The translations under genes were made by a program, and so were the position numbers. Positions 86-48,247 of a stretch of DNA of 64,000 bases are shown piece after piece. Location of the stretch: the UHGV virus genome UHGV-1362809. One strand, written 5' to 3'. The notes under the pieces were generated by a model. That model was not told the DNA's origin and ran no database searches. It saw only the letters and a list, made by a program, of their open reading frames with translations. Position 1 is the stretch's first letter; every line of letters starts with the position of its first letter. The stretch comes from a virus.

Positions 86-246
86 TTATACTTGTATTTT
101 TCCTTGGAGTTTTTGTAGGGCTGATAGTGGATGAGTTTATTACAAGATATTTATTTGCAAAGTATGACTTGTATTCCGAATACACTACACTAATGGATGA
201 AATGCACGAAAGGTCTGAAGATGAAAATCGTTCCTCAAAAAGCTGA
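82..246 (+). CDS. small hydrophobic protein (54 aa, one predicted TM helix)
   Basis: ATG at 82 overlaps the upstream stop (ATGA). The N-terminus IILVFFLGVFVGLIV is hydrophobic. No clear SD; too short to appear in the ORF track. Confidence 0.3.
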   Translation: MIILVFFLGVFVGLIVDEFITRYLFAKYDLYSEYTTLMDEMHERSEDENRSSKS

Positions 247-2608: not shown

Positions 2609-3547
2609 ATGGACGGTAATTGGGTATTACAGCAGCTTCGCACTCTAGATTATAAATGGGGTTTCAAAGTTGTAAACGATAAAGCTTGGATTCGATGTCC
2701 TTTTCATAAAAATAGAGGGGGTTTGGAAAAAACTCCGTCCTTGACGATAAATCTTGATTCAAGTATGCGTTATAAGGTGGGTGAGTTCCATTGTTTTGGT
2801 TGTGGTAAATCAGGATTATGGAATGACTTAGCCAAGGAATTAAATTTACAGTTAGTTGACGAGGAAGAAGAGCAGTTAGCTGTTGGTAGTTTGAGTCAAA
2901 AAGACCGTGACGAATTGTTTAATCCTGTGTCAAAAAAAGAAGACGTTGTTTCAGTTGAATGGGACTCAAAGGACGATTGGAGAGGTATTAAAGGTTCGTT
3001 GGTTACAAAAGTAGGCGGTCAGTTGACAAGTGATAAATGGATGACCGATACGATGCTGTATCTTCCTGTAAATGTCAACAAAAAAGAAGTTGGCGGTATT
3101 TATTGTAAAATCGTCCGAAAGTCAAAAAAGGAACGTGGCTATATAAATACCGAAGGTACTTGGATTAGGTCGAAAGGTTTGTTTCCATTTGACTACACAA
3201 AAAAGTTGTTATCCAAGTTGAAAAGTGAAGGTAAGCCCAAAGTATTATGTTTAACGGAGGGTCCTCGTGATACTCTTAACTTGTTGCAAAATGGTATCCC
3301 AAGTTTGGCAATACTTGGTTCAAATAACTGGTCACAGGCAAAGTGCAACATCATATCATTTTTGAATGTTGACAGAATTGTACTGGCGTTTGACCCTGAT
3401 ACAGCAGGACAACACGCATTTAATCGAGTTAAACAAAGTGTAAAGGATTTAGCCAAAGTATCGAAACTTGAATTTAATGAAGGTACGGATCCTGCTGATT
3501 TGACAAAAAAGCAATGTAACAACATAAAGAAAAAGTTGGGTATTTGA
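2609..3547 (+). CDS. DNA primase (DnaG-type zinc finger + TOPRIM)
   Basis: Zinc-finger block CPFHKNRGGLEKTPSL...CFGCGKSG. TOPRIM-like CLTEGPRD and AFDPDTAGQ motifs. Confidence 0.8.
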   Translation: MDGNWVLQQLRTLDYKWGFKVVNDKAWIRCPFHKNRGGLEKTPSLTINLDSSMRYKVGEFHCFGCGKSGLWNDLAKELNLQLVDEEEEQLAVGSLSQKDRDELFNPVSKKEDVVSVEWDSKDDWRGIKGSLVTKVGGQLTSDKWMTDTMLYLPVNVNKKEVGGIYCKIVRKSKKERGYINTEGTWIRSKGLFPFDYTKKLLSKLKSEGKPKVLCLTEGPRDTLNLLQNGIPSLAILGSNNWSQAKCNIISFLNVDRIVLAFDPDTAGQHAFNRVKQSVKDLAKVSKLEFNEGTDPADLTKKQCNNIKKKLGI

Positions 3548-9155: not shown

Positions 9156-9164
9156 GAGACCAAA

Positions 9165-9308: not shown

Positions 9309-9442
9309 TGACTTTATGCTTAATGTAAAATCAATCCGAAAACTTGTTAATAGCATAGCTAAAGAATACTCAGAACTATGTGAAATTAGTTCCAAGACAT
9401 TAGCATAAAATCCGAAGTATGACAAAGTACGCTCTAAAATAA

Positions 9443-15574: not shown

Positions 15575-15586
15575 AAGGGATAAGAA

Positions 15587-30752: not shown

Positions 30753-31781
30753 ATGCTTACGGAACAAAATAAAGACTTATATATTAAAATTATGGCTAAT
30801 CCAAAACCCATAGTGGATAAGTTTAGTTTATATAGTGCCAGAGACCTATGCTGCTATAGTGTATCCTGGCTTGGCTATTACAATGTATTGTGGAAAAAAG
30901 GTATCAAACTTATTTCCGTATTTCCTAATAGTCAATACAAAGTTAGAGCATTGAAGATTACTGGGGAGTCTATTCCTATCAGTATGAAAGATTGGGAAAA
31001 AATTAAAAGACAGTTTAAGAAATACCCTACTAATGGTATTAGTGTTAAAGAGAGAATTAAAATGTACTATGAGTATGTAGTAGAATGTAGTTCCTTTAAT
31101 AGGATTAAAAGTCATTTTAATAATAAGAAGGTCTGTATGTTATCCGCTTTTAGACAGGAGGACGAGGAAGGAAATCATATTAGTCTAAAAGAAAATTTAA
31201 GGAGAACGAAAAGGTTAAAGGATAAATTAAAATTTTTAGCTAAATCCTTTAATTGGAGATACTTTGAAGTAGAAGGTTGTTATTTAGAACAGGGTCAAAC
31301 TATTCCTTCTATTGAGAAATCCTTTTTTGTTGTAGCAGATGATAATGATGTGGATTTTAATAAAATAATGATTTCATTAGGAAAGGCTTTTAATCAAGAT
31401 AGTATTTTATTGAAGTCTAAAAAAGATAATGCCTATTATGTTTCTACTAATCAAAAGTCTGATAAAATATCGGGAGTCAAACTTGGTAGATTCGTACCAA
31501 ATGTTATAGGAGAATTTTATTCTAAGCTAAGAGGCAAACCTTTCATCTTTAAGTATTCTAAACCTCATCATTATTTTAAAAATGAAAAAGGAATAAAAAT
31601 AAATAAAATATTGGGCAAACCTAATGCTAATAAATATACTTATTTAGGTATTCCTAACATATATAAACAAGGGAATAAATTTTTAGTTAAGAAATATATA
31701 AAGGGAAAATTATATAAGGAACTTTTTGATACATTACCAGAGGCTAAAACATTTTTAAATAGTCTAAAAAGATTTAGCTAA
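30753..31781 (+). CDS. Lys-rich hypothetical protein
   Basis: SD AAAGGAGAA. 342 aa. Confidence 0.55.
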   Translation: MLTEQNKDLYIKIMANPKPIVDKFSLYSARDLCCYSVSWLGYYNVLWKKGIKLISVFPNSQYKVRALKITGESIPISMKDWEKIKRQFKKYPTNGISVKERIKMYYEYVVECSSFNRIKSHFNNKKVCMLSAFRQEDEEGNHISLKENLRRTKRLKDKLKFLAKSFNWRYFEVEGCYLEQGQTIPSIEKSFFVVADDNDVDFNKIMISLGKAFNQDSILLKSKKDNAYYVSTNQKSDKISGVKLGRFVPNVIGEFYSKLRGKPFIFKYSKPHHYFKNEKGIKINKILGKPNANKYTYLGIPNIYKQGNKFLVKKYIKGKLYKELFDTLPEAKTFLNSLKRFS

Positions 31782-33734: not shown

Positions 33735-34004
33735 TTGCTCAGTACAAAACACAAATATATAGCTACACAAAATTGCGTTTTAAAATTTAAGGAGTTTCCA
33801 GTAACAGTAGATTTTAATGCTAATCCTAAATCCAAAACAATAGTACAAAAAGATTGTCTTATTTATCTAACACAGGGTCAAATTTTTGAAGTAGACATAT
33901 CTACAGACTATATATGTTATTCAAGTGTGGATGAGTTAATATTAGATGAGAAAGCAATTTTAATACAAAGCGATTGCATACAAAAATATAGGGTGAGGAA
34001 ATAA
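33735..34004 (+). CDS. small hypothetical protein (TTG start; doubtful)
   Basis: TTG start with no ATG alternative. Its end runs into the bidirectional terminator. Confidence 0.25.
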   Translation: MLSTKHKYIATQNCVLKFKEFPVTVDFNANPKSKTIVQKDCLIYLTQGQIFEVDISTDYICYSSVDELILDEKAILIQSDCIQKYRVRK

Positions 34005-34020
34005 TTCCTCACCCTTTTTA
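33991..34020. terminator. bidirectional rho-independent terminator between convergent genes
   Basis: Perfect 10-bp stem GGGTGAGGAA/TTCCTCACCC with loop ATAA. T-rich flanks on both strands. Confidence 0.75.
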
Positions 34021-34035
34021 TTGTGTCATTTTAGC

Positions 34036-34995
34036 CTAAATACTTTGTTTTATGTCTTCCACCGTAAGTTTAATGCCAAGCTGTCTTGTATTAAATACTT
34101 CGTGTTGTCTATGCGGTTCACACCTATCAAAATAGCTTTTTAAGGGCGACAGCAGTTTAGGCTTAGAGGTATCTATTGTTTTCAACACCAGCATACTATC
34201 CCCAAAACACCGTCTATGTTCTTTGTACTTTACTGGTAGTTTGTTTAGGTTCGTATATTCATTATCTACAAAAGTAATATACTTAGGATGGGCACATAAT
34301 ATATCCACTTTGGAATACATAATACCAACCAGAGTAGACACATGGTCTGGTAGTTTGTTAGGCAGTAATTTTTGACGTAGCATCCATTTATTTGCGACTA
34401 CGGATAAATTATGTCCTTGTGAAATTTTATCCGTATAACTACCAATTATATATGCGAAAGCTAAGGACTCACTTCCTATTTTATCAAATGACCCTACATA
34501 AATCTCATTGTTTTCAGGCTGAGGAAATTGATTAAGACTATATAGAGATTCATAGTCCGTGATGATGATGTTTAAGTCAAATCTATCGTCGTCTCTGTAA
34601 GTTCTTCTAATTATACCATCGTAAGAGGAATAAGTAACTCTTACTTTTAGATAATTACATTTAGTTGCTTCATCTATTTCCTCTTGGCTAAACTTGTAGT
34701 ACAGCTGGTTGTCACCTTTAAATACGGATGTATAGTAAAAACTACCTATTTTGGTATGTTTAACAGCTTGAGAGACTACGCCATATTCTTCGCCTTCGTA
34801 AAAAAGTGCATAAGTATCAAGTGTTTCCAAAATAGAATGTAAGGCTTCTACTAAGGAGTGCCTACAGACCACATTTGTTTTGTTGACAAGTTTAGAGAAA
34901 TCAGATACAATCTCCTTATCTTTATTTTGTGTCATTCTTACAGTAAAACAATCTGGTTTATAATAAAAAGGATAACTCATCATTTTACATTCCAA
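34036..34995 (-). CDS. hypothetical protein (last gene of the - strand accessory block)
   Basis: 319-aa ORF that overlaps the upstream gene. Confidence 0.5.
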   Translation of the reverse strand: MECKMMSYPFYYKPDCFTVRMTQNKDKEIVSDFSKLVNKTNVVCRHSLVEALHSILETLDTYALFYEGEEYGVVSQAVKHTKIGSFYYTSVFKGDNQLYYKFSQEEIDEATKCNYLKVRVTYSSYDGIIRRTYRDDDRFDLNIIITDYESLYSLNQFPQPENNEIYVGSFDKIGSESLAFAYIIGSYTDKISQGHNLSVVANKWMLRQKLLPNKLPDHVSTLVGIMYSKVDILCAHPKYITFVDNEYTNLNKLPVKYKEHRRCFGDSMLVLKTIDTSKPKLLSPLKSYFDRCEPHRQHEVFNTRQLGIKLTVEDIKQSI

Positions 34996-35636
34996 GTCAC
35001 ACTGTTATCTGGTATCGTTACAATTATATCTCCATCCTGATTTATATCTACAGATTCAACATCAAATTCGATGGTATTAACACCTTGACGTAAATATAAT
35101 TTTTTAGGCTTGTCAATACTAATGCTTGGCATAGATATTTTGTTGGCCTTATAATAGTTGTCTAAGTATTCTCTGTCCTTAGCGGATAATGTTCTGTCAG
35201 GAGTAAAAGGCTGGTTGCCGTTAGGGTCTTTTTTGGTAAGAGTTAGCCATCCTTCATAGTAAGATGGATTGCTTAGAAGTTTGTACACCATACAAGCTTC
35301 TTCATACCGTTTTGTGCCTCTACAGCAAGAATATAATACCTCTGCTATCCCTAAAAAATGGCAAGCAATAATAACGCCATCCGCTTCCCATGCAGTACAG
35401 TTATCTGCATCATAGGAGCAAAATTCACCCCTTCTTCTAATAGTGTACTCCCGTTCCACTAAAATAGGGTCTTCTTTTGTTGCCGTGTAGCAGTAGATAG
35501 ACTCTAAAGTATAATAATTTTTGGTTCCCCGCATATCTAAAGTACAGGAACCTTTTTCTAAATGTGTAACCCCACAGTCTATTAGGAACTGTGCTGTCCT
35601 ATCCAGTAACTCTATTGAGGATATTTCTCTTGACAT
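34980..35636 (-). CDS. paralog-trio protein 3 (LGI...EACMVYKLL motif)
   Basis: Shares an LGI-x(10-14)-Y-x2-AC-[LM]-[MV]-[FY]-x-L block with the 35659 and 36213 genes. Confidence 0.5.
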   Translation of the reverse strand: MSREISSIELLDRTAQFLIDCGVTHLEKGSCTLDMRGTKNYYTLESIYCYTATKEDPILVEREYTIRRRGEFCSYDADNCTAWEADGVIIACHFLGIAEVLYSCCRGTKRYEEACMVYKLLSNPSYYEGWLTLTKKDPNGNQPFTPDRTLSAKDREYLDNYYKANKISMPSISIDKPKKLYLRQGVNTIEFDVESVDINQDGDIIVTIPDNSVTWNVK

Positions 35637-35658
35637 TATACTACTCCCTCTTAGTAAA

Positions 35659-36213
35659 TTATTCCTTCAACTTTACATAATACATATTACTTGCGTTGTC
35701 GCTAATGAAATTTACCTTTGGAAATTCTATTTTAGGTAATGGTTGTTTTGTTATATCCTTACACCAATCAGGCTTTTTAAGATTGTTTTTGTCATAAAGG
35801 CTCAGCACATAGTCTAAATCTTTACCTTTGAGACATTTACCTATGATATAGCTCGTATGGTTTGAGAGGTCTGGATTTTGTAACTGTCTGAACTGTTGTT
35901 TAAAGTTTTTACCCAGTAGGTTAAACATTAGGCAAGCATGTTTATATTCTGTAGAGTTACGGTTAAGTTTAACTATTTTGTCGATACCGAGACCACACAA
36001 AACCTGTACGATGTAATAAAGGTCTGTGGAATTCGTGGTTATCGAATTTTCAGCGAAACGCCAAGAATCTGTAAATTTAAAAGTATCTATACGCCAAACC
36101 TTATAGTCCCCCTCGAACTCTATAGTATGACCGTCGGGAGTATCCATAGTTTTAATTTCAGCGTCACACAGAAATTGCACCATTTTTTGTACAAGACATT
36201 TATCTATTTTCAT
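35659..36213 (-). CDS. paralog-trio protein 2 (LCGLGIDK...YKHACLMFNLL)
   Basis: Same conserved block as its neighbours. Confidence 0.5.
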   Translation of the reverse strand: MKIDKCLVQKMVQFLCDAEIKTMDTPDGHTIEFEGDYKVWRIDTFKFTDSWRFAENSITTNSTDLYYIVQVLCGLGIDKIVKLNRNSTEYKHACLMFNLLGKNFKQQFRQLQNPDLSNHTSYIIGKCLKGKDLDYVLSLYDKNNLKKPDWCKDITKQPLPKIEFPKVNFISDNASNMYYVKLKE

Positions 36214-36902
36214 TATTTAGAGTCCTTTAAATTATAGGTTGAAATTGTAACTGTATAGTTGTTCTTATCTATCTCTACGTGTGAATCTGTTACTTGTAAG
36301 GTATTTATTACTTTGTCATCAAGCAATAGACATACAGTAATTTTTGGTCTATGTTTGGCATTATTTATTTCGTGCATAGCCACCCAAGATGCAATGCTAT
36401 CTACTATTGCAGGAGGAATTTTTACTTTGTACCTTTTGTATATAGCGAGTACTTTGTGCAGCACAGTATCCGACATTTGTTTGCCAAACTCCCACTCTTG
36501 AGGATCTTTTAGTTCGGAATTAACTAAATGTACATACTCCATTCTTGTACGATCCGTAAACCTAAGTTTGAACATTAGGCAAGCTTGATTGTACAGTATG
36601 CCTGTGAGGGAACCTATATTAGATATTCCTAAGTTAGCTGCAACCTTAAGAAACTGTTTACATTCTTCCTCGGTGTAAGAATCCTTCATTTGGAGTATAT
36701 GATAATCAGGCATTTCAAGTGCCTCTTTTCTTGAAAGGTTGTTTATATAGTTATAACCCAAGATATTGTTATCCACATAGGCAATCAGCCAATTATCAGG
36801 ATTACCGAACACCTTGATACCGCATAGGGAACCATAGTCTCTTACTACTGGTAAATTAGTGTCAAACATAAATTTGACAATAGCATAAATCTGACTTTTC
36901 AT
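36213..36902 (-). CDS. paralog-trio protein 1 (ANLGISNIG...YNQACLMFKL)
   Basis: SD TAGGAG. First gene after the internal terminator/promoter. Confidence 0.5.
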   Translation of the reverse strand: MKSQIYAIVKFMFDTNLPVVRDYGSLCGIKVFGNPDNWLIAYVDNNILGYNYINNLSRKEALEMPDYHILQMKDSYTEEECKQFLKVAANLGISNIGSLTGILYNQACLMFKLRFTDRTRMEYVHLVNSELKDPQEWEFGKQMSDTVLHKVLAIYKRYKVKIPPAIVDSIASWVAMHEINNAKHRPKITVCLLLDDKVINTLQVTDSHVEIDKNNYTVTISTYNLKDSK

Positions 36903-36940: not shown

Positions 36941-36974
36941 ACAAAAAAATACCGTGAGGAGTTAACTCCTCACG
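36941..36974 (-). terminator. rho-independent terminator for the upstream - strand operon, with an AT-rich promoter-like tract at 36905-36940
   Basis: Perfect 10-bp stem CCGTGAGGAG/CTCCTCACGG with loop TTAA. On the - strand it is followed by TATTTTTTTG and then GTAAATATACATATAAAAC. Confidence 0.75.
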
Positions 36975-36982
36975 GTTTGTCT

Positions 36983-37537
36983 CTACAAGGTGGCATAATC
37001 TTGAAAATTTTCCAGCCTATACAAAAACCTTAGTTTTTCATAATCATTAGACGCATTTATGTATTGTTTATTTATATTTCTAGTTGTATATAAATAATAT
37101 GCATCTAAGAAATACACATTACACGTAGACAATAAAGTATCTAACGCTTTTGTTGTTGGGTTGTCCATAACCACTAATAACATACCATCATGCCCTTTTA
37201 TTATAATGCCTCCTTTTTTTAAAAATACTTCAGTTAATTTAATAGCATTAGTATTATTATTTAGAACTTTATAATAGTGACAAATAAATTCAAGATGATC
37301 TACACTATCCGTAGTTATAAAGTTTCCGTCACTAAATATATACCCACACTTATTTTTTTTTGTTTTATTACTTAGCTGTTCTTCTACTGAGCATCTATTA
37401 TTCCACAAAAGTTCTGCGTATTCCTCATTATCACATTCGACTTTAACAGTTAATCCTTCTCCTAAACAACCCATACATTGTATAATATTACCATGGTTAG
37501 AAGGAAGTTTTCCACAGAAAGGACATGGCTTTAACAT
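36983..37537 (-). CDS. protein with N-terminal Lar-like (restriction alleviation family) zinc ribbon
   Basis: N-terminus MLKPCPFCGK...C.GC...AELLWNNRC resembles the Lar family CPFCG ribbon, recalled from memory rather than aligned. Confidence 0.45.
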   Translation of the reverse strand: MLKPCPFCGKLPSNHGNIIQCMGCLGEGLTVKVECDNEEYAELLWNNRCSVEEQLSNKTKKNKCGYIFSDGNFITTDSVDHLEFICHYYKVLNNNTNAIKLTEVFLKKGGIIIKGHDGMLLVVMDNPTTKALDTLLSTCNVYFLDAYYLYTTRNINKQYINASNDYEKLRFLYRLENFQDYATL

Positions 37538-38577
37538 GTTAGAATACCTCTTATTTTTTCTAAATCCCTTATAATGTCTACAGGGTCTTCTAATCCTATA
37601 CTTAATCTTACTATCAAATTCCCTTCGTGTTTAAATATTGATCCTACTGTAAATGGGGCACCGAAAGTATCTCCAAACTGTATAACTTCAAAAGAGTTCA
37701 CTATATTTTTATACACTGGTTCCATTGTATTTGTCTGTATGACTATATAAATTAGCCCGCACCTACTATCAGAGGATATTTTTGCCCTGACAGATAATAA
37801 ATACTTCTTTACTGTCTCTGTTGTACTTTTGATTCTCTCCATTCTTAATGGCAATGTGGCTATTCTAATCTGTGCCAAATAGCAGTCAACAGGATTGGGA
37901 GATATTCCCATTACTCTTATTATATTTCCGTATCCCTTTTCTTCCTGAAGATCTACATCCTTAGAAACTATAGCTCCTAACATACAATTATTATGACCAC
38001 TTACATATTTTGCCAGTGACTCTACAACAAAATCTGCACCATCATTTAAGGGATTATAATTATAAATATTTAATATGCTATTATCGATGCAGAGTTTTGA
38101 ATTATGTCCATGTATGTAGGTGCTTAATTTTTTAATATCTGGAGTATATAAAGAAATTGATCTCATGGAGTCTATAATGATAAGGGAGTTTTGTATATTA
38201 TGTTTTGTAAGTTCCTCCTCACTATCTAAATAAACGCATCTATATTGTTGAAGTACTTGAGTTACTTCACTGTAAGTACCTATTACATATATTGTTGAGA
38301 AACTCTTTGCTAGCACATAAAAAGCTGATACTCCCGAACAACACACCACACAATTTTCTACTGGTACTTCATATAAACTTGCCACAGTGGCAGTAAGAGC
38401 TTTTACATTCGGCACCATATTTTTACTACATCTACGATAGGCAATTTCATAATTTCCCAGTTCCATTGACCTTAGATATTCCTCTTTACTCTTAAAACTG
38501 TTATTTAGATTTACAGTGTTTGGAATTAAGGTCTCACTATATATAGATGGGGATACACAACGAGAAGAAAATTTCAA
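37531..38577 (-). CDS. PLP-dependent enzyme of the Cys/Met metabolism (cystathionine gamma-synthase/lyase) family
   Basis: DFVVESLAKYVSGHNN is a close match to the family PLP-lysine signature D-x4-S-x-T-K-[FY]-x-x-G-H. Confidence 0.55.
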   Translation of the reverse strand: MKFSSRCVSPSIYSETLIPNTVNLNNSFKSKEEYLRSMELGNYEIAYRRCSKNMVPNVKALTATVASLYEVPVENCVVCCSGVSAFYVLAKSFSTIYVIGTYSEVTQVLQQYRCVYLDSEEELTKHNIQNSLIIIDSMRSISLYTPDIKKLSTYIHGHNSKLCIDNSILNIYNYNPLNDGADFVVESLAKYVSGHNNCMLGAIVSKDVDLQEEKGYGNIIRVMGISPNPVDCYLAQIRIATLPLRMERIKSTTETVKKYLLSVRAKISSDSRCGLIYIVIQTNTMEPVYKNIVNSFEVIQFGDTFGAPFTVGSIFKHEGNLIVRLSIGLEDPVDIIRDLEKIRGILTC

Positions 38578-39429
38578 TTATATTACTCCAAATTCTTTAT
38601 TTATATCACATATAAAACAAGTGTTATTACTACTATATTTTTTAAAATTTATAGAATGTCCACATGTAGCCCTCTCGCAAGAACAATAAATAAAAGTATT
38701 CTTTTCCTTGTCATAATAATTAAGGACACGAGGCTGAATTATATTAATATTTGGTATATACTTAGATAAATATGTTGAATCCTGTTTTTGTACGCATCGT
38801 AAGGCCTTAAATATATGAGACTGGTCGCAGCATAAATTTTTATTATATACTATATATGGAAGTAAATTAACCCAGCAACAATGTTCTTTTTGAAATTTAG
38901 CAACATCAAAAGTATTATCTAATATACTATTACAAGTCTTTTTTGTTAGAATAGTATTACAGACTACATTAAAACCACGGGAAACTACGTAGTCCATATT
39001 AGTCAACATTAGGTCTCTGTCTTCCTGACATTTAAATCTTCCATCTAAATCATAGGAGGTAGTAAACTTTATACGAGGGAAAACATCTTCAAATGTATCT
39101 AAAAAAGTAATCAAACAACGTGTGTCTTTATATATTAAATTTGTATTTATGTATAACAAGTCAATTACATTTACACATAGCAAAGTTTTTATTTTGCTCC
39201 AAAAGTTTTTAAGTATATGCTCGCAATTATTATTGTCAAATAGTTCTCCTCCTACTATAAGAACGTGACTGCCTTTAATATAAAGGTTAGAATTAATATA
39301 GTCTATGACACACTGCAGACTTTGTTCCTTTTGTTTTAAACTTAGTAATCTTGGGTGTTCCCTCTGAAAACAAAAGGAACAATTATTGTTACAGTTATCC
39401 CATATTAAAAATTCATATATAGGTTTCAT
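38578..39429 (-). CDS. radical SAM enzyme, paralog 1 (C-terminal Cys cluster)
   Basis: N-terminus FLIWDNCNNNCSFC (CxxxCxxC), GGELF and TSYDLDGRF blocks, and C-terminal CSCERATCGH...CFICD. Confidence 0.75.
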   Translation of the reverse strand: MKPIYEFLIWDNCNNNCSFCFQREHPRLLSLKQKEQSLQCVIDYINSNLYIKGSHVLIVGGELFDNNNCEHILKNFWSKIKTLLCVNVIDLLYINTNLIYKDTRCLITFLDTFEDVFPRIKFTTSYDLDGRFKCQEDRDLMLTNMDYVVSRGFNVVCNTILTKKTCNSILDNTFDVAKFQKEHCCWVNLLPYIVYNKNLCCDQSHIFKALRCVQKQDSTYLSKYIPNINIIQPRVLNYYDKEKNTFIYCSCERATCGHSINFKKYSSNNTCFICDINKEFGVI

Positions 39430-40241
39430 TTGTTTACTTCTATACTATAAATATCCTGTTTAAAAAAAGGTATACTTTGCTGTATATTAGCTGTATACCG
39501 TAAATAAGATTCAAAACACCTATCTCTTTCAGCTTTTAAATTTTTATACAATGGAGTGTCCTTTGTTTTGGTAGGATAATATAACATATATTTATAATTA
39601 ACTTCCTCACACTCAACAAGATTTGTATCATATAAATTTATAGGCCCAAAAATAATAGGTTCCTTGTTTTTATTTTGTATCTGTATATTCAAGGGCTTAG
39701 TATATATTGCGTTTCCTTGTTCATCGAGCAACCCTATAAAAAAATCACTATCATCTAATAAAACTATTTTATCTTTAAACCATGCGTAGTCTGCACTTTT
39801 TAAAAGACACTCTCTACATAACTTAAAGTACTTAAACTTTAAATATTGTTTTAATTGGATACTAATAAAATCAAAGTGCATTAGCCTTTCTAATTGATTA
39901 ATTATGTCTCTATAGGCTTGTGTAATAGCATCTTCATCAACGTCTTGACATACTTTTAAGGGTTGTCGTTGTTCTATTTGGTAGAAAAAGTTATCCTTTT
40001 CTACCGTTATTATCTTCCAATGAATACCCCACGAAGTATATAACTGTGCTAACTTTTCTCTTATTTCCATACAGTACTTTTGATTAGAGTGCATCTGATA
40101 AACTTTGTAGTAAAAATTATCCGTTTTAATTACTACTTGTCCTTCAACACCCTTCCACTTTAAACTATTAGATAAATTACTTTTATCTACCAAGGCTATC
40201 AGCTCAAAAAAAGTATCTGTATTTTTAATTACCTCAAACAT
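39426..40241 (-). CDS. hypothetical protein within the radical-SAM operon
   Basis: 271-aa ORF with 4-nt overlaps to both neighbours. Confidence 0.5.
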   Translation of the reverse strand: MFEVIKNTDTFFELIALVDKSNLSNSLKWKGVEGQVVIKTDNFYYKVYQMHSNQKYCMEIREKLAQLYTSWGIHWKIITVEKDNFFYQIEQRQPLKVCQDVDEDAITQAYRDIINQLERLMHFDFISIQLKQYLKFKYFKLCRECLLKSADYAWFKDKIVLLDDSDFFIGLLDEQGNAIYTKPLNIQIQNKNKEPIIFGPINLYDTNLVECEEVNYKYMLYYPTKTKDTPLYKNLKAERDRCFESYLRYTANIQQSIPFFKQDIYSIEVNK

Positions 40242-41200
40242 ATAGACTCCATAATGTTTTTAAACAAGGGAATTCCTTTTTCTAATGCCTCTGGGTATTT
40301 TATAAACGAGGACGCCCTAAATCTTGGTTGAATTCTTACTCCTTCCTCCGTGTGTTCAGCCCCTTCTATTCTTATATGGTAGTTTTTCATAAGATTAAAA
40401 GTAGTTATATTAAATTTATATAAGGAATTATAAGACACAATAGAAGGAATAGTATTATTTGGTGTTAAAATACTGCTGTATTTTTCAAATTCCATATCTA
40501 GAACAGGTTTTAATAAAAATAGCTTATCCATTCTTTGGACTACTATTTTTAATAATTCTAAGTGTTGTAGGGGTCTATATTTATACTTTTTACCTATGTC
40601 CGACAATTTGTTATTTCTTATAACTATTCCCATATCAAATTCCTTAGTCATAGCATGTGCAGTACCAATTATATAGTCAAACATGCTATAGTCTCTTGGT
40701 AGTACAAACATTTCTTGTACTGCGTCTAACACCATTATTATTTTTTTATTAGTACACAAACTTTTTATTTTTTTCAAAAATATATCCTTTGTAATATTTC
40801 CTGAAGCTGTAGTACCAATTATATAACAAAAGATGTTAGTATAGCCATCCACTATTTTTTTAATACTTCCCCAGTCTAGATTTTTATTGTGCCTATTTAT
40901 TACACAAGTGTTACTTTTTTCTAAGTGTTTTTTCACACTGTCATGTTCGTCAGAGGAAACTATAACAAGGGTTTTATTATCTACGTACATAGAAAATAAT
41001 TTATCTATTATTGAAGTGGCACTTACATCAAAAGATACTGAATGAGTAGTAGCTACATTATTAGCAGGGCATAAGTCTAAATATTGTAAGGAATAATCTT
41101 CTTGTCCTATTTCATAATCCTCATACTTTTTGGATAATAGCTCTTGTTCTCTATTATCCAAAGGTTTGTACTTTAGCCACCATTGTATATAGTTATCCAT
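40229..41200 (-). CDS. class-V aminotransferase/cysteine desulfurase-like PLP-fold protein (tentative)
   Basis: IMVLDAVQEMF...DYIIGTAHAMTK resembles the NifS vDAaQ...SgHK region, and IIGTTASGN resembles GGTESNN. At 323 aa it is shorter than typical NifS. Confidence 0.4.
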   Translation of the reverse strand: MDNYIQWWLKYKPLDNREQELLSKKYEDYEIGQEDYSLQYLDLCPANNVATTHSVSFDVSATSIIDKLFSMYVDNKTLVIVSSDEHDSVKKHLEKSNTCVINRHNKNLDWGSIKKIVDGYTNIFCYIIGTTASGNITKDIFLKKIKSLCTNKKIIMVLDAVQEMFVLPRDYSMFDYIIGTAHAMTKEFDMGIVIRNNKLSDIGKKYKYRPLQHLELLKIVVQRMDKLFLLKPVLDMEFEKYSSILTPNNTIPSIVSYNSLYKFNITTFNLMKNYHIRIEGAEHTEEGVRIQPRFRASSFIKYPEALEKGIPLFKNIMESICLR

Positions 41201-42147
41201 TATTTATTTTCCATTTTTTCTATTAGGTGTTTATCGCAAATAACACAGGCATCCGAATCAATATAGGCAGCATAGTCCATAAGGTGGCCACATTTATTAA
41301 AGGATACTCCTATGTCATACTCCTTATTTACCCCTTTGTGTCTCTCATTTAACTGCATACGGTTTTCAGAATCATTAAAGTTTCTGTACAGTGTATCTGC
41401 CCTGTAGTAAATATTAAAAAGTTTATCCCACATTTCTACGGACTCTCTCTTTCTAAAAAGAGCTAAAAACTTTAAAAAAGTGGAACGATGAGGATAAAAA
41501 TTGCCTACTATTTTATTAGTTTCCTGCTTATAATTATTACCATGCAAAAAAGACCCACACTGTTTAAAGAAAAAAGATGCATTATAAGCTTTTTTCATTT
41601 TTTCAAAGTCTATCTGTCCTTGGATATATTTTTGTACAAAGTCCTCTGATAGGATAGACGTAATATTAAAATGTATTTGAGGGTATAAAGATACTATACT
41701 TTTTATATGTCCGTCCCAAGTATCAAACATCTTTTTTGTATGAAATCTGCCCAATGTATCAAAAGATGTTAAAATCCATAAGTTAGATTTGTCCTTAAAT
41801 AGTTTTAGCACTTCATAAAGGTCTTCGCACTTACCAATAGTCATGGTAGCATAAATCCAGACTTGTCTTACTATTCCTTCGTTGTATAGCTGCGCCGTTT
41901 TTTCCATCAGTCTAAAAAATTTATTTTTTATAGAAGGAGTATTCAACTGACCTTGAAAAAACTCCCCACCAAGATAGGATAACACATCATATTCTTTGTA
42001 AATACTCAAATCACTAATTTTATTAAGGGCATCATCTAAAGCTTGTTCTTTAAGTTTATCGTCTGTATGAGTATTATTTTTTCCTAAATAACAAAAGGAA
42101 CACTTAGAATTGCATTCTTGCCATAATTCAAATTGCAGTTGTTTCAT
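41200..42147 (-). CDS. radical SAM enzyme, paralog 2
   Basis: FELWQECNSKCSFC, GGEFF, TSFDTLGRF and C-terminal CGH...CVICD. Confidence 0.75.
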   Translation of the reverse strand: MKQLQFELWQECNSKCSFCYLGKNNTHTDDKLKEQALDDALNKISDLSIYKEYDVLSYLGGEFFQGQLNTPSIKNKFFRLMEKTAQLYNEGIVRQVWIYATMTIGKCEDLYEVLKLFKDKSNLWILTSFDTLGRFHTKKMFDTWDGHIKSIVSLYPQIHFNITSILSEDFVQKYIQGQIDFEKMKKAYNASFFFKQCGSFLHGNNYKQETNKIVGNFYPHRSTFLKFLALFRKRESVEMWDKLFNIYYRADTLYRNFNDSENRMQLNERHKGVNKEYDIGVSFNKCGHLMDYAAYIDSDACVICDKHLIEKMENK

Positions 42148-43067
42148 AAAGAACTTCCTCCATCTAAAGCATATAGATCACACAACACGCATTTATCACA
42201 ATCTGAGTAGCATCTATATAAAATAGAATGTCCACAGTCACTAAGAATCTCTTTTCCGTCTGATAATCTAGGTTGCTCTTTTATATCTATAGTAGTTTTA
42301 TTTATTAGTCCGGTATACTTAAAAATAGAAGAGTTTTTTGTAGAATTTGTAAAATTATAGTATGCTACTGGATTAACTTTTTTTAAGTATCTTACAAAAT
42401 TTAAAAAATCATTTCTTTTAAAAAAGAAATCCTTTAGCTGTATTCCTGTATGTATAGGGTGAGGATATAAAAAGTTTAAACTATTTCCTGGGATTTTTGA
42501 TTTTATAAATTCATTTATATCCCATTCTCTATTTTTCCATAAATCTATAACGTATTGCGTTAGTATCATTTGTACTCCCACTGTGTAATTATACCTTTTA
42601 TGGAAATTATTTATATTATCTAGTACTATTTTATGTTGCTGTTCTGTTTTAAACCTATACTTTAGATCATAAGAAAAATTTAAATCTACCTTTTCTATCC
42701 CAACAGCATCTACTATTTTGTCTATTACCTTATACAAAAAGGTCGGATCATATAAACCATTTGTTACAGAAGAATACTTACAAAAAGGATTCTTAGAAAC
42801 TTTTAATATATATTCTATTACAACATCTATTAAGTCTAAAAAAGAATCCTGTAGTTTTTTATCCGTTATGTAGTAGAGCTCTCCCCCTAACAAAGATATT
42901 CCATAACTAAACTTATTTTCCCAATCTAGCAGCTTAATATTTTGTTTTATAGCATCTAACCAAACTAATTGCTTTTCGTATGTATAAGGTATTCTTTGTT
43001 CCCTTAAACAAAAGGCACAATCATTACAGCAATTAGGCCATACTCCATATTGACACATATTAGCCAT
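42144..43067 (-). CDS. radical SAM enzyme, paralog 3
   Basis: VWPNCCNDCAFC, GGELYY, FSYDLKYRF and C-terminal CGHSILYRCYSDCDKCVLCD. Confidence 0.7.
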   Translation of the reverse strand: MANMCQYGVWPNCCNDCAFCLREQRIPYTYEKQLVWLDAIKQNIKLLDWENKFSYGISLLGGELYYITDKKLQDSFLDLIDVVIEYILKVSKNPFCKYSSVTNGLYDPTFLYKVIDKIVDAVGIEKVDLNFSYDLKYRFKTEQQHKIVLDNINNFHKRYNYTVGVQMILTQYVIDLWKNREWDINEFIKSKIPGNSLNFLYPHPIHTGIQLKDFFFKRNDFLNFVRYLKKVNPVAYYNFTNSTKNSSIFKYTGLINKTTIDIKEQPRLSDGKEILSDCGHSILYRCYSDCDKCVLCDLYALDGGSSL

Positions 43068-43966
43068 TATAGTAATCCCGTTATTTTTTTAAATTGTTGT
43101 GTTACTTCCAAAATAGATTCTTCACAGTCATAAAAATAGCTTGACGAAAAAGGATCATATTTTTGTCTATCGGATGTAAAGGTTCTACCATCTCTACTAT
43201 CATAATAAAATATTGTGTTAGACCTTAAACTACTAGACAAAAAATCCTTAGTAAGCAACCCTTTTTTATTTAAAAAAACCAAGAAAGAAATAAACTCTTT
43301 CTTTCTTGGTAAAAACAAAGGAATAATCTTATTTGCCTGTTCTTTATTTTTAAAATTTCGTACAGTAGGTTCAATAAAATCTAATCTAGCTGCATACTTT
43401 TCACTGAACATTCCTATGTCAAACTGTCCTGATAAAACTTGCTGTATAAAATGATGAGTTACTATTAGTTCGATGTGTGTCTTTATATTCGTACTATTTA
43501 TTTTTCTTACATTATTTTCCCATAAAGTAAGACCATTATTTTTAAATCGGTATATAGTATCATAGGATGTACATATTACTACATTTTTTTCTATATCTAA
43601 TTCTTTTAAGTAATGTAAGAATTCATCAAACATAGTAGATTCAAATATTAACGACGTTGCTATAAGCAGTCTATTTACTTTTTCTTCCTTAATCTTTTTA
43701 GAAATTTCTAAAATTACTTTTGTAAATAAAAGATACTCATTTTCTTTCATTTGACCATCAAAAAATTCTCCGCCGATTAGCCCGATAGTATCACAAAACT
43801 CTACATTTTTTATGCGACATAAAGTTTTTTTCAAGGAATTTATTTTAGAAACAGATGTACTAATAAATCTATTATAACAAAAGTCGCATCCGTTTTTACA
43901 GTCTGCCCATAATTCAAACTGTAAAAATTTATGTTCCTTTTGTATTATTTCCTTCTCTGAGTTCAT
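43067..43966 (-). CDS. radical SAM enzyme, paralog 4 (lacks the C-terminal Cys cluster)
   Basis: FELWADCKNGCDFC, GGEFFDG and TSYDTIYRF. Confidence 0.75.
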   Translation of the reverse strand: MNSEKEIIQKEHKFLQFELWADCKNGCDFCYNRFISTSVSKINSLKKTLCRIKNVEFCDTIGLIGGEFFDGQMKENEYLLFTKVILEISKKIKEEKVNRLLIATSLIFESTMFDEFLHYLKELDIEKNVVICTSYDTIYRFKNNGLTLWENNVRKINSTNIKTHIELIVTHHFIQQVLSGQFDIGMFSEKYAARLDFIEPTVRNFKNKEQANKIIPLFLPRKKEFISFLVFLNKKGLLTKDFLSSSLRSNTIFYYDSRDGRTFTSDRQKYDPFSSSYFYDCEESILEVTQQFKKITGLL

Positions 43967-44548
43967 TTATATATTCTCTACTGTTTGTACATAAGTATAA
44001 GTGCAGGGTCTATTTCTAATACTATTCTTTACATAATAAAATAGGGAATTTATATAGTCATTTACATGGTCTTCCCTTATTAAATCTGTGTTGCCGGATC
44101 CTTTAAAATATTCCTTATAGAAATAGGACACATCTCCTTGATTATAAATCACATAAGTGTTTGGGTCCAAATAACTACAAGTAAAAAAAAGTCTGCAAGA
44201 ACAAAAAGACATCAAATTATTAATTAAATTAAAAAAGTCCTCAGCAGACACTCTAGCATTTATATTCGGTACAATAGACCTTATAAAACTATCCAGCTGA
44301 CTAGACATGGTACTAAAACTACATTCTGTAATAGGGTTGCTAATATAAGCAGTCATTACAGGTAATTCTCTTCTACGAGCCCAGCTATTGTATAATGTAT
44401 ATGTTCCATCAGTAGCCTCGTACCTATAGGAAAAATTAGGTTTAAAACATGCTGGCAGCCCTGCATAGTTGCTTATGTTTATACAAGTAGAAGAGATTAA
44501 AGTTTTTAGGTAGTTTATTACTTGGGAATATGTGCATAAAATTTCCAT
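43967..44548 (-). CDS. hypothetical protein; paralog of the 44558 gene
   Basis: YSQVINYLKTLISSTCINIS resembles FSQVISEVKKYIKTICHNID of its neighbour. Confidence 0.5.
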   Translation of the reverse strand: MEILCTYSQVINYLKTLISSTCINISNYAGLPACFKPNFSYRYEATDGTYTLYNSWARRRELPVMTAYISNPITECSFSTMSSQLDSFIRSIVPNINARVSAEDFFNLINNLMSFCSCRLFFTCSYLDPNTYVIYNQGDVSYFYKEYFKGSGNTDLIREDHVNDYINSLFYYVKNSIRNRPCTYTYVQTVENI

Positions 44549-44557
44549 TAATTTCTC

Positions 44558-45193
44558 CTATATAATCATATAGGCTATGTATACACTACTACTAGAACTA
44601 CTACTACTAGAACTACTACTAGAACTACTGCAGCTACTACTAGAACTACTACAAGCCACCTGAATAGACGTTACTATTTTGTGCATATTAAGGACATTAC
44701 CGCACAAATTAGATATTTCATTAATTCTCGCTAATAAATAGGCAGACTGAATATTTCCAATATCCTTTAAGCCGCCACCAATGGTTAAATAATTAGCCGG
44801 ATTCTTATTATAAAATACTGAGATGTGGCTATTAACTCCTGCTGACACAAAAACTATGCGTGTGGTCAAAAAACTGGCTATATTATTCATTAAGTACAAT
44901 AAATTTTGAACCGTAATTAGGTCGTCGTCTAAAAAGACAATACCCCTAGAACTTAAAAAGTCCAAAAGTTGAGATTCTACTGTACTGCTGGGAACTACTA
45001 CTGCAAGGTTATCAGTAACAGTTGCTGTTATAGTTTGTTTACTTCCCTGTGAAATAACATAAGTGGAACCATTCCGTAAAGAAATATCTACAGAAGAAGA
45101 AAAGGAATCGATATTATGACATATCGTTTTTATGTATTTTTTTACCTCAGATATTACTTGAGAAAAAGTAATCAAATTTGACTTATCAACCAT
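44558..45193 (-). CDS. hypothetical protein with C-terminal poly-Ser/Cys tail
   Basis: Ends ...ACSSSSSSCSSSSSSSSSSSSSSSSVYIAYMII. The tail is encoded by an ACT/AGA trinucleotide repeat. Confidence 0.5.
   Translation of the reverse strand: MVDKSNLITFSQVISEVKKYIKTICHNIDSFSSSVDISLRNGSTYVISQGSKQTITATVTDNLAVVVPSSTVESQLLDFLSSRGIVFLDDDLITVQNLLYLMNNIASFLTTRIVFVSAGVNSHISVFYNKNPANYLTIGGGLKDIGNIQSAYLLARINEISNLCGNVLNMHKIVTSIQVACSSSSSSCSSSSSSSSSSSSSSSVYIAYMII
44585..44653. repeat. imperfect trinucleotide (ACT/AGA) tandem repeat encoding poly-Ser on the - strand
   Basis: Read directly from the sequence: (ACT)n interspersed with AGA, GCA and GCT. Confidence 0.8.
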
Positions 45194-45794
45194 TTTCAGT
45201 TCCTTTTAAGTTCTCTGCAAACAGGTTTATTAAATTAAGGCTTATTGCTTTATTAATTAAAAGACAATTAATATAGTAGGCTGAGTCCTCTATATAGTAG
45301 TCCGGAATTTTTTCCATACCAGAGGTACTAAGTATTCCACATAAAGTTTGAAAATCATATTGTTCAAATATTTGTGCGTATAATGGAGACAATGTTTTTA
45401 CAGTGTCCATAGGAGAAAAAAAGTTTTTATCATAGGAGCACAATAAACTAATAAATTTAGACGCTAATTCCTTAGAAACTTCCTCCAATTTATCTTTCAT
45501 AAGAATTCTTATTTCTATAAATTGGTCTAAGTCCTTAATAAATACTAAAGGATTATTAAAAAAACTATCATCTAAAGAATTATATGTTTTTATTAGATTA
45601 ACTAAATTTGAAATAAAAACTTGGTTTATGTTGTTACTATCTGACAAAAATAAGTCTAACGCATAAATAATGTACTCTGTGGGTAAATTTTTTAAGGAAA
45701 CTTTGGCATCCTTGCACTTTAGTATAGGAAGTAATTCCTGTTTTAAAGTGCCCTTTTCTATATCAGAATTAAAAGTAATAATATCCCTTGACAT
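45186..45794 (-). CDS. hypothetical protein (first gene of the accessory operon)
   Basis: 202-aa ORF that overlaps the next gene. Confidence 0.5.
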   Translation of the reverse strand: MSRDIITFNSDIEKGTLKQELLPILKCKDAKVSLKNLPTEYIIYALDLFLSDSNNINQVFISNLVNLIKTYNSLDDSFFNNPLVFIKDLDQFIEIRILMKDKLEEVSKELASKFISLLCSYDKNFFSPMDTVKTLSPLYAQIFEQYDFQTLCGILSTSGMEKIPDYYIEDSAYYINCLLINKAISLNLINLFAENLKGTENG

Positions 45795-47194: not shown

Positions 47195-48247
47195 TCAGTC
47201 AAATTCTCTTGTATCTGAATAACCAATGCACACGCCAGTTCCAATATAGCTCAGTTCGTTGACCGTTTCTATACAACTTACAACACTATTTACAGTATTA
47301 GTTATGGCACAATTTTCACCCAATTCAGTCAAGCCGATTTTTAAAGTGGCAGTAGCCTGTATAAAGGGAGTGTGCAAAATATCCGCAGGAGTAGGCAACT
47401 TATGTGAACTCCAATTATTTGAAGCCTCAATACTCCACAAAGATATATAATAATAATTATTGCCTCTTCTTACATACCTAATTGCCCCACCGCTATTATC
47501 TGTTTGAAAACTACCAACTCGTCTATAGTGATAGCCTTCATTTACCATCTCCACAGGGTCTAAACTACTATAATATCTACAAACAACCTTGCCTGCGTTG
47601 TTTATACCCAAAAAGACATGATATGTTGTATTAGCCATAGTATTTACAAGCACAATGTACATAGGAGTATTAAGAATTATGTTGGCACTATCGTCCTTAC
47701 TTCTACAACTTCCTGTACCAATCACAAACGTAGTTTCATTCTGCCAATCAATCCCTAATCCCTGTATAAACATTGGACCAAAAACACGAGTAGTACCGCT
47801 CATATATGCTTTAAGAGACGCAGGACTAATCATAATATCGTCTCGGCTACTATTAGCTACTTCCGCATTTGTAGCAAACCTTGCCACGCCTACCTTGGCT
47901 GTTGTGGCGTCTTGTATATTGGAGGCATCTGATAGTGCAATACCTTTATTGGTAATAGCGTCCGTACCCAAATTGCTTAAGTCTGTGGATACCAAACCTT
48001 TTTTTGTCAAGGTTTCTTTTGACACGTTGCTCATATTATCAGCAGCTACACCTTTATTAAGCATAGTGGCTAATGTAACATTATTCAAATCTTCTCTTGC
48101 TAAAGGATAGCCACCATTAAGGTTACCATCCATTACAACAACAGTCTTTTTATCAGTATCCATACAAACTTCGTTCACACTGCCTTTAAAGGAGGCAAAC
48201 TGATTTGTAGTACCCTTTCTAAGACTAAATACTGTCGAATCCGCCAT
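47195..48247 (-). CDS. tail fibre-like protein
   Basis: Composition and position. Confidence 0.45.
   Translation of the reverse strand: MADSTVFSLRKGTTNQFASFKGSVNEVCMDTDKKTVVVMDGNLNGGYPLAREDLNNVTLATMLNKGVAADNMSNVSKETLTKKGLVSTDLSNLGTDAITNKGIALSDASNIQDATTAKVGVARFATNAEVANSSRDDIMISPASLKAYMSGTTRVFGPMFIQGLGIDWQNETTFVIGTGSCRSKDDSANIILNTPMYIVLVNTMANTTYHVFLGINNAGKVVCRYYSSLDPVEMVNEGYHYRRVGSFQTDNSGGAIRYVRRGNNYYYISLWSIEASNNWSSHKLPTPADILHTPFIQATATLKIGLTELGENCAITNTVNSVVSCIETVNELSYIGTGVCIGYSDTREFD

Follow-up and report, generated by a model that had tools for sequence, protein, structure and literature searches.

Background

Anaerobic sulfatase-maturating enzyme (anSME) is a radical-S-adenosylmethionine (radical-SAM) dehydrogenase of the SPASM type that acts on the side chain of serine or cysteine, producing formylglycine in both cases. 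Other radical-SAM enzymes are known to mature ribosomal peptides, and the chemistry that radical-SAM enzymes perform on peptides has been a repeated source of unprecedented reactions. Here we describe an 11-gene operon (g1 to g11; Table 1) at positions 36983-45794 of a 64,000-nucleotide stretch, called the window, of the virus genome UHGV-1362809. The operon encodes four radical-SAM paralogs (A to D) and a protein, g10, that ends in a tract composed only of serine and cysteine followed by a conserved motif. Most of these genes belong to a cassette found in uncultured giant phages of gut and rumen, and this cassette probably represents an enzyme system, so far undescribed, for the chemical remodelling of a phage protein.

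The cassette resembles anSME in that anSME acts on protein without a recognition element (RRE) of the kind associated with peptides that are made on ribosomes and modified after translation (RiPPs), and in that the Ser/Cys substrates of anSME match the composition of the g10 tract. The resemblance of the enzymes themselves is structural: identity to anSME (4k36) is 15%, and no anSME or SPASM hidden Markov model (HMM) matches. In contrast to anSME, which has two auxiliary clusters and a seven-cysteine SPASM motif, the phage enzymes have three or four C-terminal cysteines, or none in the case of D. Moreover, anSME modifies a single residue within C/S-x-P/A-x-R, a motif that g10 lacks.

The gene clusters of RiPP maturases (SkfB, the ranthipeptide/SCIFF enzyme CteB, SuiB, ChlB, EpeE/YydG and PqqE) share with the cassette a clustered candidate precursor with a recognition segment and a Cys/Ser-rich segment, as well as variable tailoring genes beside the core. 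Unlike those clusters, in which one or two radical-SAM enzymes are found, the cassette has four to eight paralogous enzymes. Its candidate precursor is a folded protein of about 200 residues with the motif at the extreme C-terminus; no RRE, protease or transporter was found among its genes; and the phages that encode it, within virion-gene modules, are jumbo phages of lytic type.

Two further systems invite comparison. Viperin and the prokaryotic viperins (pVips) differ in that the cassette lacks a nucleotide kinase or nucleotide-metabolism partner and is linked instead to the tailed protein, and viperin HMM scores are far below their cut-off (15-23 bits versus 180). Phage thymidine hypermodification uses pairs of a radical-SAM isomerase and a pyridoxal 5'-phosphate (PLP) decarboxylase, together with the defining partners 5-hydroxymethyluracil (5-hmU) DNA kinase, the amino-acid:DNA transferase aGPT-Pplase and often a deoxyuridine monophosphate (dUMP) hydroxymethylase (PMC8989533). 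The clusters of phages M6 and ViI are, like the operon in the window, phage encoded and combine radical-SAM with PLP enzymes (PMC8989533). Unlike them, the cassette has no detected 5-hmU DNA kinase or aGPT-Pplase, its radical-SAM proteins are not of the spore-photoproduct-lyase type, and of its two PLP-fold proteins one (g2) is not conserved and the other (g5) lacks the lysine.

Results and discussion

The cassette is conserved across related phages

Loci related to the operon were fetched by way of radical-SAM B (27 from IMG/VR, 16 from genome bins and several from metagenomes), and their open reading frames (ORFs) were classed with family HMMs. A second seeding used four divergent g10 homologs, to remove the bias of starting from radical-SAM B. 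The recurrent unit consists of g11, g10 and a third gene, which is g9 or another g10; after these come three to eight radical-SAM genes in an array. All four radical-SAM orthogroups are present in 29 of the 46 loci seeded with B, and B is often duplicated. The g11 family, which is always located beside g10, occurs in 33 of these 46 loci, the g5 family in 21 and the g9 family in 20, and g4 is occasional. The synteny is reciprocal: each of the four loci seeded with g10 carries g11, a tailed g10 and a radical-SAM array. As judged from gene content, the cassette core comprises g11, g10, often g9, radical-SAM A to D, often g5, and g4.

A tail-patterned ORF end was revealed by six-frame scanning in 41 of 54 loci. 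Among the remaining 13, a contig end truncates six, and a further one is a fragment of 3.4 kb; another overlaps a region of a tail-bearing contig, one contains a lone B gene and four contain distant arrays. Loci L012, L017 and L032 have two units, and each copy has its own tailed g10. The linkage is kept through rearrangement, strand inversion and duplication, and radical-SAM B proteins are only about 25-60% identical between phages. Functional coupling of the radical-SAM array and the tailed protein is the conclusion most strongly suggested by these comparisons.

The cassette is always located within structural or late modules. It lies by fibre genes in the window and in 288-kb relatives, and in L052, a T4-like contig of 29.9 kb, head and neck genes lie on either side of it. 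Because L052 has Gp23, Portal_T4 and gp13, the cassette is not confined to one phage lineage. The initial annotation had considered four radical-SAM genes in a row very unusual for a phage. This holds only relative to cultured phages; in the uncultured clade studied here, tandem arrays of three to eight such genes are usual. Neither a megablast search with the operon nor a tblastn search with radical-SAM B found a match among 50,697 GenBank phage records, and full-text literature searches on radical SAM, phage, RiPP and virion themes returned no description of the cassette. Homologs are annotated at their source as 'hypothetical protein', with a generic MoaA/NifB/PqqE/SkfB label, or with an NCBI third-party annotation (TPA) note citing CteA/SCIFF.

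Several loci differ from the common arrangement. A carbamoyltransferase gene (Carbam_trans_N and Carbam_trans_C) is located inside the L052 cassette at 10681-12279, between the tailed g10 and radical-SAM D. In L034 (12598-14664), a canonical PF04055 domain with a weak UPF0004 (MiaB/RimO-like) match is fused to a B-type domain in a protein of 688 residues. Sugar-nucleotide genes (NTP_transferase, WbqC) are near the cassette in L054, and L052 has a weak Fucose_pyrophosphorylase match. L006 (7334-8062) and, equivalently, L010 have an ORF of 242-248 residues between a g5-like gene and radical-SAM C that is absent in near-identical 288-kb relatives. By eye it contains an HNH-like motif (HHILPLSLGG...N...H), and it may be a homing endonuclease.

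Cassette-bearing contigs of 245-283 kb (among L035-L050) have been deposited as metagenome-assembled genomes of Bacilli, 'uncultured bacterium' and others, and look like jumbo phage genomes that were mis-binned. The shorter cassette-bearing contigs are labelled with many different taxa. A host could not be assigned from genome bins, because the 16 matches have mutually inconsistent taxonomy, with labels that include Succinivibrionaceae, Muribaculaceae, Bacilli, Bacteroides, Oribacterium, Melainabacteria and an archaeon.

The g10 tail and its paralog g9

The g10 protein of the window ends in C181-SSSSSSCSSSSSSSSSSSSSSS-VYIAYMII-211. This C-terminus had escaped the initial annotation, as had the paralogy of g9 and g10 (25% identity, BLASTP E value 6e-7). 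Proteins of the g10 type have a tract of 9-36 residues, composed of serine with about 13% cysteine, and then a C-terminal octapeptide, hydrophobic-F-I-A-Y-M-[N/K/D/E/R]-[I/L]. When 163 distinct tails are aligned from the C-terminus, Ser and Cys together account for 95-100% at every one of the last 15 positions of the tract, and Thr for no more than 2%. Cysteine reaches its maximum, 31%, six positions before the motif. The commonest motif core is FIAYM (65 tails), and FIGYM, FIVYM and YIVYM occur in 13 each. Conservation of the terminal motif far exceeds that of the g10 N-domain, in which mean column identity is 31% and large insertions are tolerated.

Many other residues are one nucleotide from a serine codon, yet only Ser and Cys are kept in the tract. 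The tract codons in the window are a mixture of AGT, AGC and TCT, and the use of both AGY and TCN serine codons implies selection at the amino-acid level. Tract length is polymorphic: in a 91%-identical allele (P0155), the tract (window 44585-44653) is five residues shorter. A six-frame pattern scan finds this type of ORF end exactly once in the window.

The g10 family is large. HMMER with the g10 profile against 1.84 billion representatives returned 514 clusters with E<=1e-3, of which 363 reach E<=1e-10, so the family contains at least 514 clusters at 50% identity. The tail is present in 131 of 167 sequences inspected, and the remainder are mostly fragments or g9-type proteins. Neither g9 nor g10 has a meaningful match in Pfam, PHROG, NCBIfam or PADLOC, with a few weak, low-scoring matches only; g11 has no match in these collections.

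The model of g10 consists of an ordered alpha/beta N-domain and a tail predicted to be disordered, with predicted local distance difference test (pLDDT) values below 50 from residue 184. No structure in PDB or BFVD is significantly related to the N-domain. Glycine-rich domains of fibre type are joined to domains of the g9/g10 type, or interrupt them, in three proteins (P0309, P0320 and P0259), and one g9/g10-type domain follows a 400-residue repeat domain in a 640-residue protein of L028. An assignment of these N-terminal repeats as BspA-type leucine-rich repeats was not confirmed by Pfam.

Four divergent radical-SAM enzymes

Proteins A to D are paralogs of about 300 residues with common motifs, as the initial annotation proposed. 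Pairwise BLASTP comparisons give 20-28% identity, with E values between 2e-4 and 2e-20 against the small database of window proteins, and the W, C-x3-C-x2-C, GGE and S-x-D-x3-R-F positions are invariant. An interpretation as fragments of one degraded gene was rejected because each protein is full length, has its own cluster motif and has orthologs that are 34-67% identical in other phages; the radical-SAM C ortholog of L006 reaches 67%. Within each family, C-x3-C-x2-C is conserved in 96-100% of 28-49 members, and the core of the fold is a partial TIM barrel with a SAM-binding motif of the GGE type. Because the sequences are so divergent, membership in the radical-SAM superfamily rests on motif and fold. 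By these marks A to D are real radical-SAM enzymes belonging to four anciently diverged orthogroups, and the initial assignment holds even though scores against PF04055 are below threshold.

The expected C-terminal cysteine clusters, C-G-H...C-x2-C-D, were found in A, B and C, and are lacking in D both in the window and in the family. A and B keep C-G-H...C-x2-C, with three cysteines, as assessed for A in 28 family members. In family C (33 members), C278, C286, C293 and C296 are invariant. In family D (29 members), the only conserved cysteines are C23, C27, C30 and C132. In the model of radical-SAM B, strands 252-255 and 265-268 and helix 302-314 are arranged around C286, C301 and C304. A to C may have a twitch-like single auxiliary site, with either Fe-S or Zn as candidate metal. 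A site of the SPASM kind, which had also been proposed, is not borne out: three or four C-terminal cysteines are conserved rather than the seven-cysteine motif, and no SPASM match is among the Pfam and NCBIfam hits. Radical-SAM A also matches PHROG 1802, at 3e-7.

Among the families that the initial annotation had put forward for comparison, SPASM, anSME, QueE and full-length viperin models gave no match to A to D, and only weak N-terminal viperin/pVip scores (NF038283 and PADLOC) were obtained. These matches cover the first 60-70 residues or so in A and B, and about 165 residues in D, at 15-16 bits. For QueE, close structural similarity was lacking as well. In structural comparisons the best match is anSME (4k36), with a score of 14.6 over 253 aligned residues, followed by BlsE (13.6), SkfB (13.5), viperin (13.4), ChlB (13.3), MoaA (13.0), SuiB (12.5), CteB (11.8), EpeE/YydG (11.7) and PqqE (11.6).

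A proposed RiPP-like maturation of the g10 tail

The reading we favour, to which we give roughly an even chance, is that the cassette performs a RiPP-like maturation in which the radical-SAM enzymes modify the disordered tail of a virion-associated g10. The g10 protein would be made as a folded, variable N-domain, a disordered tract of Ser and Cys, and a near-invariant C-terminal motif. The hydrophobic-F-I-A-Y-M-x-[I/L] motif might be a follower-type recognition element common to all of the enzymes; one motif serving several enzymes would explain its extreme conservation. At its C-x3-C-x2-C cluster, each enzyme would split SAM reductively, and it would take hydrogen from residues of the tract. 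In A, B and C, the C-terminal Cys3His or Cys4 site might act as a sink for electrons or bind cysteines of the substrate. What would result is a tether, altered chemically, on a virion-associated protein of fibre or adhesin type.

As to the reaction, our preferred guess is an anSME-like oxidation of Ser and Cys at C-beta to formylglycine, because the tract is Ser/Cys-only, anSME is the best structural match and anSME converts both residues alike. Such chemistry would explain why only these residues are tolerated, and why they seem to be interchangeable. Alternatively, the enzymes could form thioether cross-links, as do SkfB and CteB, or epimerize C-alpha, as does EpeE/YydG; both are equally compatible with the fold data, and the chance that any one specific reaction is correct is well below even.

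The predicted disorder of the tail, which would leave it accessible, is consistent with this proposal. The variable genes that accompany the core (g2, the L052 carbamoyltransferase, the L034 MiaB/RimO-like fusion and a fusion of g4 to B) are, by analogy, typical of the tailoring genes of biosynthetic clusters. A link to the virion is suggested by the location of the cassette in structural and late modules and by the fusions of g9/g10 domains to fibre-type and repeat domains. The initial annotation had named the proteins at 43967 and 44558 as candidates for co-expression with the radical-SAM enzymes, and this choice was apt: the latter, g10, is the putative substrate, and the former, g9, is its paralog. 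A RiPP-like modification pathway is likewise the best supported of the three roles that it had offered.

Several observations weigh against tail maturation. No RRE/PqqD-like domain, leader peptidase or exporter was found in the cassette proteins with Pfam, NCBIfam or PHROGs, and g10 lacks C/S-x-P/A-x-R, the substrate motif of anSME. The PF04055 scores of the window proteins are 19.1-23.8 bits, with D at 19, versus a gathering threshold of 29.5, although some homologs have a precomputed PF04055 match. Multi-enzyme arrays without a tailed ORF within the fetched flanks occur in L039, L043, L049 and L050. A pure poly-serine tract could be only a linker, and virion association is read from gene position and domain fusions. 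A virion-displayed protein whose tail is rewritten by four or more radical-SAM enzymes into a poly-formylglycine (aldehyde-rich), thioether-laddered or D-residue tether is a tentative picture that we judge less likely than not in its full form.

Perhaps the enzymes act instead on a small molecule, such as a nucleotide, sugar nucleotide or cofactor-like metabolite, in the manner of viperin, BlsE, DesII, BtrN or MoaA. The product might be attached to the serine hydroxyls of g10, much like an O-glycan, or have an unrelated use, for example in anti-defence nucleotide chemistry, in which case g9 to g11 would be mere neighbouring structural genes. We regard this as a serious alternative with a distinctly minor share of the probability. 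The weak viperin/pVip matches, the lack of an RRE domain in the radical-SAM proteins, the sugar-nucleotide genes near some cassettes (with NTP_transferase and WbqC in L054, and a weak Fucose_pyrophosphorylase and the carbamoyltransferase in L052) and the resemblance of orthogroup D to viperin in having no auxiliary cluster all speak for it. However, the viperin scores come from the cluster-binding N-terminus only, sugar genes are present in few loci, and the cassette has no conserved glycosyltransferase or transferase of another kind. A small-molecule pathway also leaves unexplained why the cassette and the tailed protein are duplicated together and why FIAYM is near-invariant.

It is also conceivable, although improbable, that the linkage is coincidental or structural only: the tract would serve as a flexible tether and FIAYM-x-I as a strand that docks during virion assembly, with a separate role for the radical-SAM enzymes and both sets of genes merely expressed late. 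Poly-serine linkers do occur in extracellular bacterial proteins. The range of tract lengths (9-36 residues), the five-residue difference between 91%-identical alleles and the fusions of g9/g10 domains to fibre-like domains fit a tether. But linkers usually tolerate Gly, Thr, Asn, Pro and Ala, whereas the tract accepts only Ser and Cys, and the association of radical-SAM genes with g10 outlasts rearrangement, inversion and duplication and holds when loci are seeded from g10 too.

PLP-fold and accessory proteins

The g2 protein is a Cys/Met gamma-family PLP enzyme, as had been predicted: it matches PF01053 (Cys_Met_Meta_PP) with 112 bits versus a gathering threshold of 27 (3e-32) and keeps the lysine signature SLAKYVSGH. 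It reaches no equivalog cut-off, the best NCBIfam equivalogs giving about 82 bits versus cut-offs above 400. Its start is ambiguous, in that a TTG at 38577, which abuts radical-SAM A, is used in the ENA record and the next ATG in the JGI record. The gene is present in none of the 46 loci seeded with radical-SAM B and none of the four seeded with g10, and on this distribution it is a lineage-specific addition.

The g5 protein, described initially as NifS/class-V-like, does match PF00266 (Aminotran_5) weakly (24.9 bits, 1.2e-5, residues 62-176 only), but its family lacks the catalytic lysine, and the window copy is the only one of 13 members to reach PF00266. The motif D159-A-V-Q...T180-x-H182 is followed by Ala, Cys or Ser in place of the Schiff-base lysine in all 11-16 aligned members, as read against positions that we take to be D200, Q203, H225 and K226 of SufS. 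A search of PDB sequences with the family profile found no class-V structure. Weak desulfurase-type matches (TIGR01977, 4e-5; SspA, 3e-3) were seen, and canonical PLP chemistry is doubtful for g5 on the strength of its motifs.

These results bear on the sulfur or amino-acid chemistry that the initial annotation had emphasized. Under that proposal, g2 and NifS-like g5 would mobilize sulfur and the radical-SAM enzymes would insert it, as in biotin synthase, LipA, MiaB and RimO. The intact-looking, lysine-bearing cystathionine-lyase/synthase-family protein g2, the matches of g5 to models of the cysteine-desulfurase type, the MiaB/RimO-like domain fused to a B-type enzyme in L034 and the cysteines of the tract could be read in its favour. 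However, g2 is confined to the lineage of the window, and g5 is missing from over half of the loci and belongs to a family without the PLP lysine, 12 of whose 13 members miss the Pfam class-V model and which has no class-V match in PDB. The sulfur theme is therefore weak, and we consider it quite improbable.

Hypermodification of DNA, in which radical-SAM and PLP enzymes would sculpt an amino acid appended to 5-hydroxymethyldeoxyuridine as in phages M6 and ViI, is very improbable despite that precedent and the ThyX-type thymidylate synthase encoded in the window, because the 5-hmU DNA kinase, aGPT-Pplase and dUMP hydroxymethylase were not detected among the cassette genes, and because the cassette lies in structural rather than replication modules; this role, also suggested initially, is not upheld.

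A g4-like domain is fused N-terminally to a B-type radical-SAM domain in L042 (8855-11077, 740 residues) and L048 (8866-10908, 680 residues). In addition, L042 at 14095-16179 and L046 at 8333-9724 apparently have g4 fused to a B-like domain without C-x3-C-x2-C. No Pfam relative of g4 was found, and its family profile has no meaningful PDB match. A candidate assignment as a kinase, made by eye from LLDDSDWF, was dropped for want of profile support.

The g1 protein has a visible zinc-ribbon pattern (CPFCG...C-x2-C), as its initial description as a Lar-like zinc ribbon implies, but it misses all Lar cut-offs (PF14354, 12.7 bits versus 28.6, E 0.16; TIGR03655, 21.3 versus 39.6), with PHROG 599 at 2.8e-5. 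In L001 the gene is split into pieces of 73 and 66 residues. The only other cassette with a g1 relative is that of L053, where a 28%-identical protein adjoins it, and on this distribution g1 is a lineage-specific or occasional neighbour of the cassette.

Operon layout and genomic setting

All 11 ORFs of the operon were confirmed, from the ORF list, at the coordinates in Table 1. The initial description of translationally coupled genes with overlaps of 1-13 nucleotides is essentially right: seven of 10 junctions overlap in this way, but g9/g8 (g8 is radical-SAM D) and g3/g2 (g3 is radical-SAM A) abut, and g10 and g9 are separated by a gap of 9 nucleotides.

Table 1. Coordinates of the operon, its parts and other features of the window
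Feature	Position	Strand	Description
g11	45186..45794	-	202 aa; core cassette member
g10	44558..45193	-	211 aa; putative substrate; N-domain, Ser/Cys tract and C-terminal motif
g10 tail	44561..44653	-	residues 181-203, Ser/Cys tract CSSSSSSCSSSSSSSSSSSSSSS; residues 204-211, VYIAYMII
g10-tail model			synthetic peptide named as model of the tail: ACSSSSSSCSSSSSSSSSSSSSSSVYIAYMII
g9	43967..44548	-	193 aa; paralog of g10 N-domain, without tail
radical-SAM D	43067..43966	-	299 aa; C-x3-C-x2-C, without C-terminal Cys site
radical-SAM C	42144..43067	-	307 aa; C-x3-C-x2-C and four conserved C-terminal Cys
radical-SAM B	41200..42147	-	315 aa; C-x3-C-x2-C and C286-G-H288...C301-x2-C304-D
g5	40229..41200	-	323 aa; very divergent class-V-aminotransferase-like, catalytic lysine lost
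g4	39426..40241	-	271 aa; accessory domain linked to radical-SAM enzymes
radical-SAM A	38578..39429	-	283 aa; C-x3-C-x2-C and C256-G-H...C271-x2-C274
g2	37531..38577	-	Cys/Met gamma-family PLP enzyme; 348 aa (TTG start) or 311 aa (next ATG)
g1	36983..37537	-	184 aa; Lar-like zinc-ribbon N-terminus and unassigned C-terminal part
intrinsic-terminator-like hairpin	36951..36976	-	directly after g1 stop; 11-bp stem, 7 GC pairs, then ATTTTTTTGT; closes operon
ThyX-type thymidylate synthase	197..1162	+	with N-terminal extension
DnaG-type primase	2609..3547	+	left end of window
tail sheath	10005..12602		
S-adenosylmethionine lyase family protein	30753..31781	+	342 aa; PF23780 (2.2e-15)
second 26-nt hairpin	33990..34015		
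d1-d4	34036..36902	-	four genes (229, 184, 218 and 319 aa)
tail-fibre-like protein	47195..48247	-	350 aa

The phage is known from metagenomic data and has a genome of about 237 kb; genes identical to those of the window are on 237-kb contigs from ENA and JGI. Tail sheath and baseplate wedge genes identify it as contractile-tailed. The genes upstream of g11, on the same strand, are tail genes for the tape measure, baseplate hub, baseplate wedge and tail fibres. One tail-fibre-like protein has matches to tail collar fibre PHROGs and a weak precomputed match to Mtd_N, the N-terminal domain of the major tropism determinant. The operon had been placed directly downstream of the tail-fibre genes with no terminator between. 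A consensus scan from these genes to g11 agrees with this, revealing no strong site and only two weak ones, both inside the upstream 461-residue gene. From this arrangement we infer that the operon is expressed late.

The operon is indeed more AT-rich than the neighbouring structural genes, with a GC content of 27-33% (mostly 27-31%) versus 34-41% in the flanks. The accompanying suggestion that it was acquired as a block is unsupported as a recent event. Although cassette GC is below that of the flanks in 37 of 42 loci, by a median of 3 points, it tracks genome GC from 22% to 44%, which argues against recent horizontal acquisition and for long residence. By this comparison of composition, the cassette is an old resident of this phage group.

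A protein with an S-adenosylmethionine lyase family domain is encoded about 5 kb from the operon. A phage that both destroys SAM and needs it would have to keep the two activities separated in time or space.

Next to the operon is a separate unit of four genes, d1 to d4, bounded by two terminator-like hairpins. These genes were seen only in the lineage of the window; d1 to d3 are weak paralogs with a common ...ACLMF.LL... motif (d1/d2, 3e-6; d2/d3, 1e-3), and no family match or meaningful match in Pfam, PHROG, NCBIfam or PADLOC was found for d1 to d4. The two hairpins, at 36951-36976 and 33990-34015, are 26-nucleotide palindromes (ACCGTGAGGAGTTAACTCCTCACGGT and AGGGTGAGGAAATAATTCCTCACCCT) with T-runs on both strands, and have the appearance of a bidirectional terminator motif that recurs in this phage.

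Conclusions

In hundreds of uncultured jumbo phages of gut and rumen, three to eight divergent radical-SAM enzymes are kept beside a protein with a highly unusual tail of Ser and Cys only. A cassette within a phage virion module, with four to eight paralogous enzymes and a substrate of about 200 residues that bears a Ser/Cys-only tract and a recognition motif at its C-terminus, would be a new form of the radical-SAM maturation of ribosomal peptides, possibly with new chemistry. If the tail is the substrate, RiPP-like maturation would extend to phage virion proteins. New enzyme families would also be defined, namely A to D, the lysine-less class-V fold, g4 and g11, and a simple set of substrate and enzymes would be available for heterologous reconstitution. 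Because the combination of [S/C]n and then FIAYM-x-[I/L] at a C-terminus is easily searched, it can serve as a marker for genome mining.

If the tail is rewritten, the reaction would belong to a new class of post-translational chemistry on ribosomal products, and the protein would be the first phage structural component matured by radical-SAM enzymes, with a possible use in adhesion, covalent capture of the host surface or resistance to proteases in the gut. For phage biology, the cassette points to an unrecognized level at which virions are chemically adapted to the gut.

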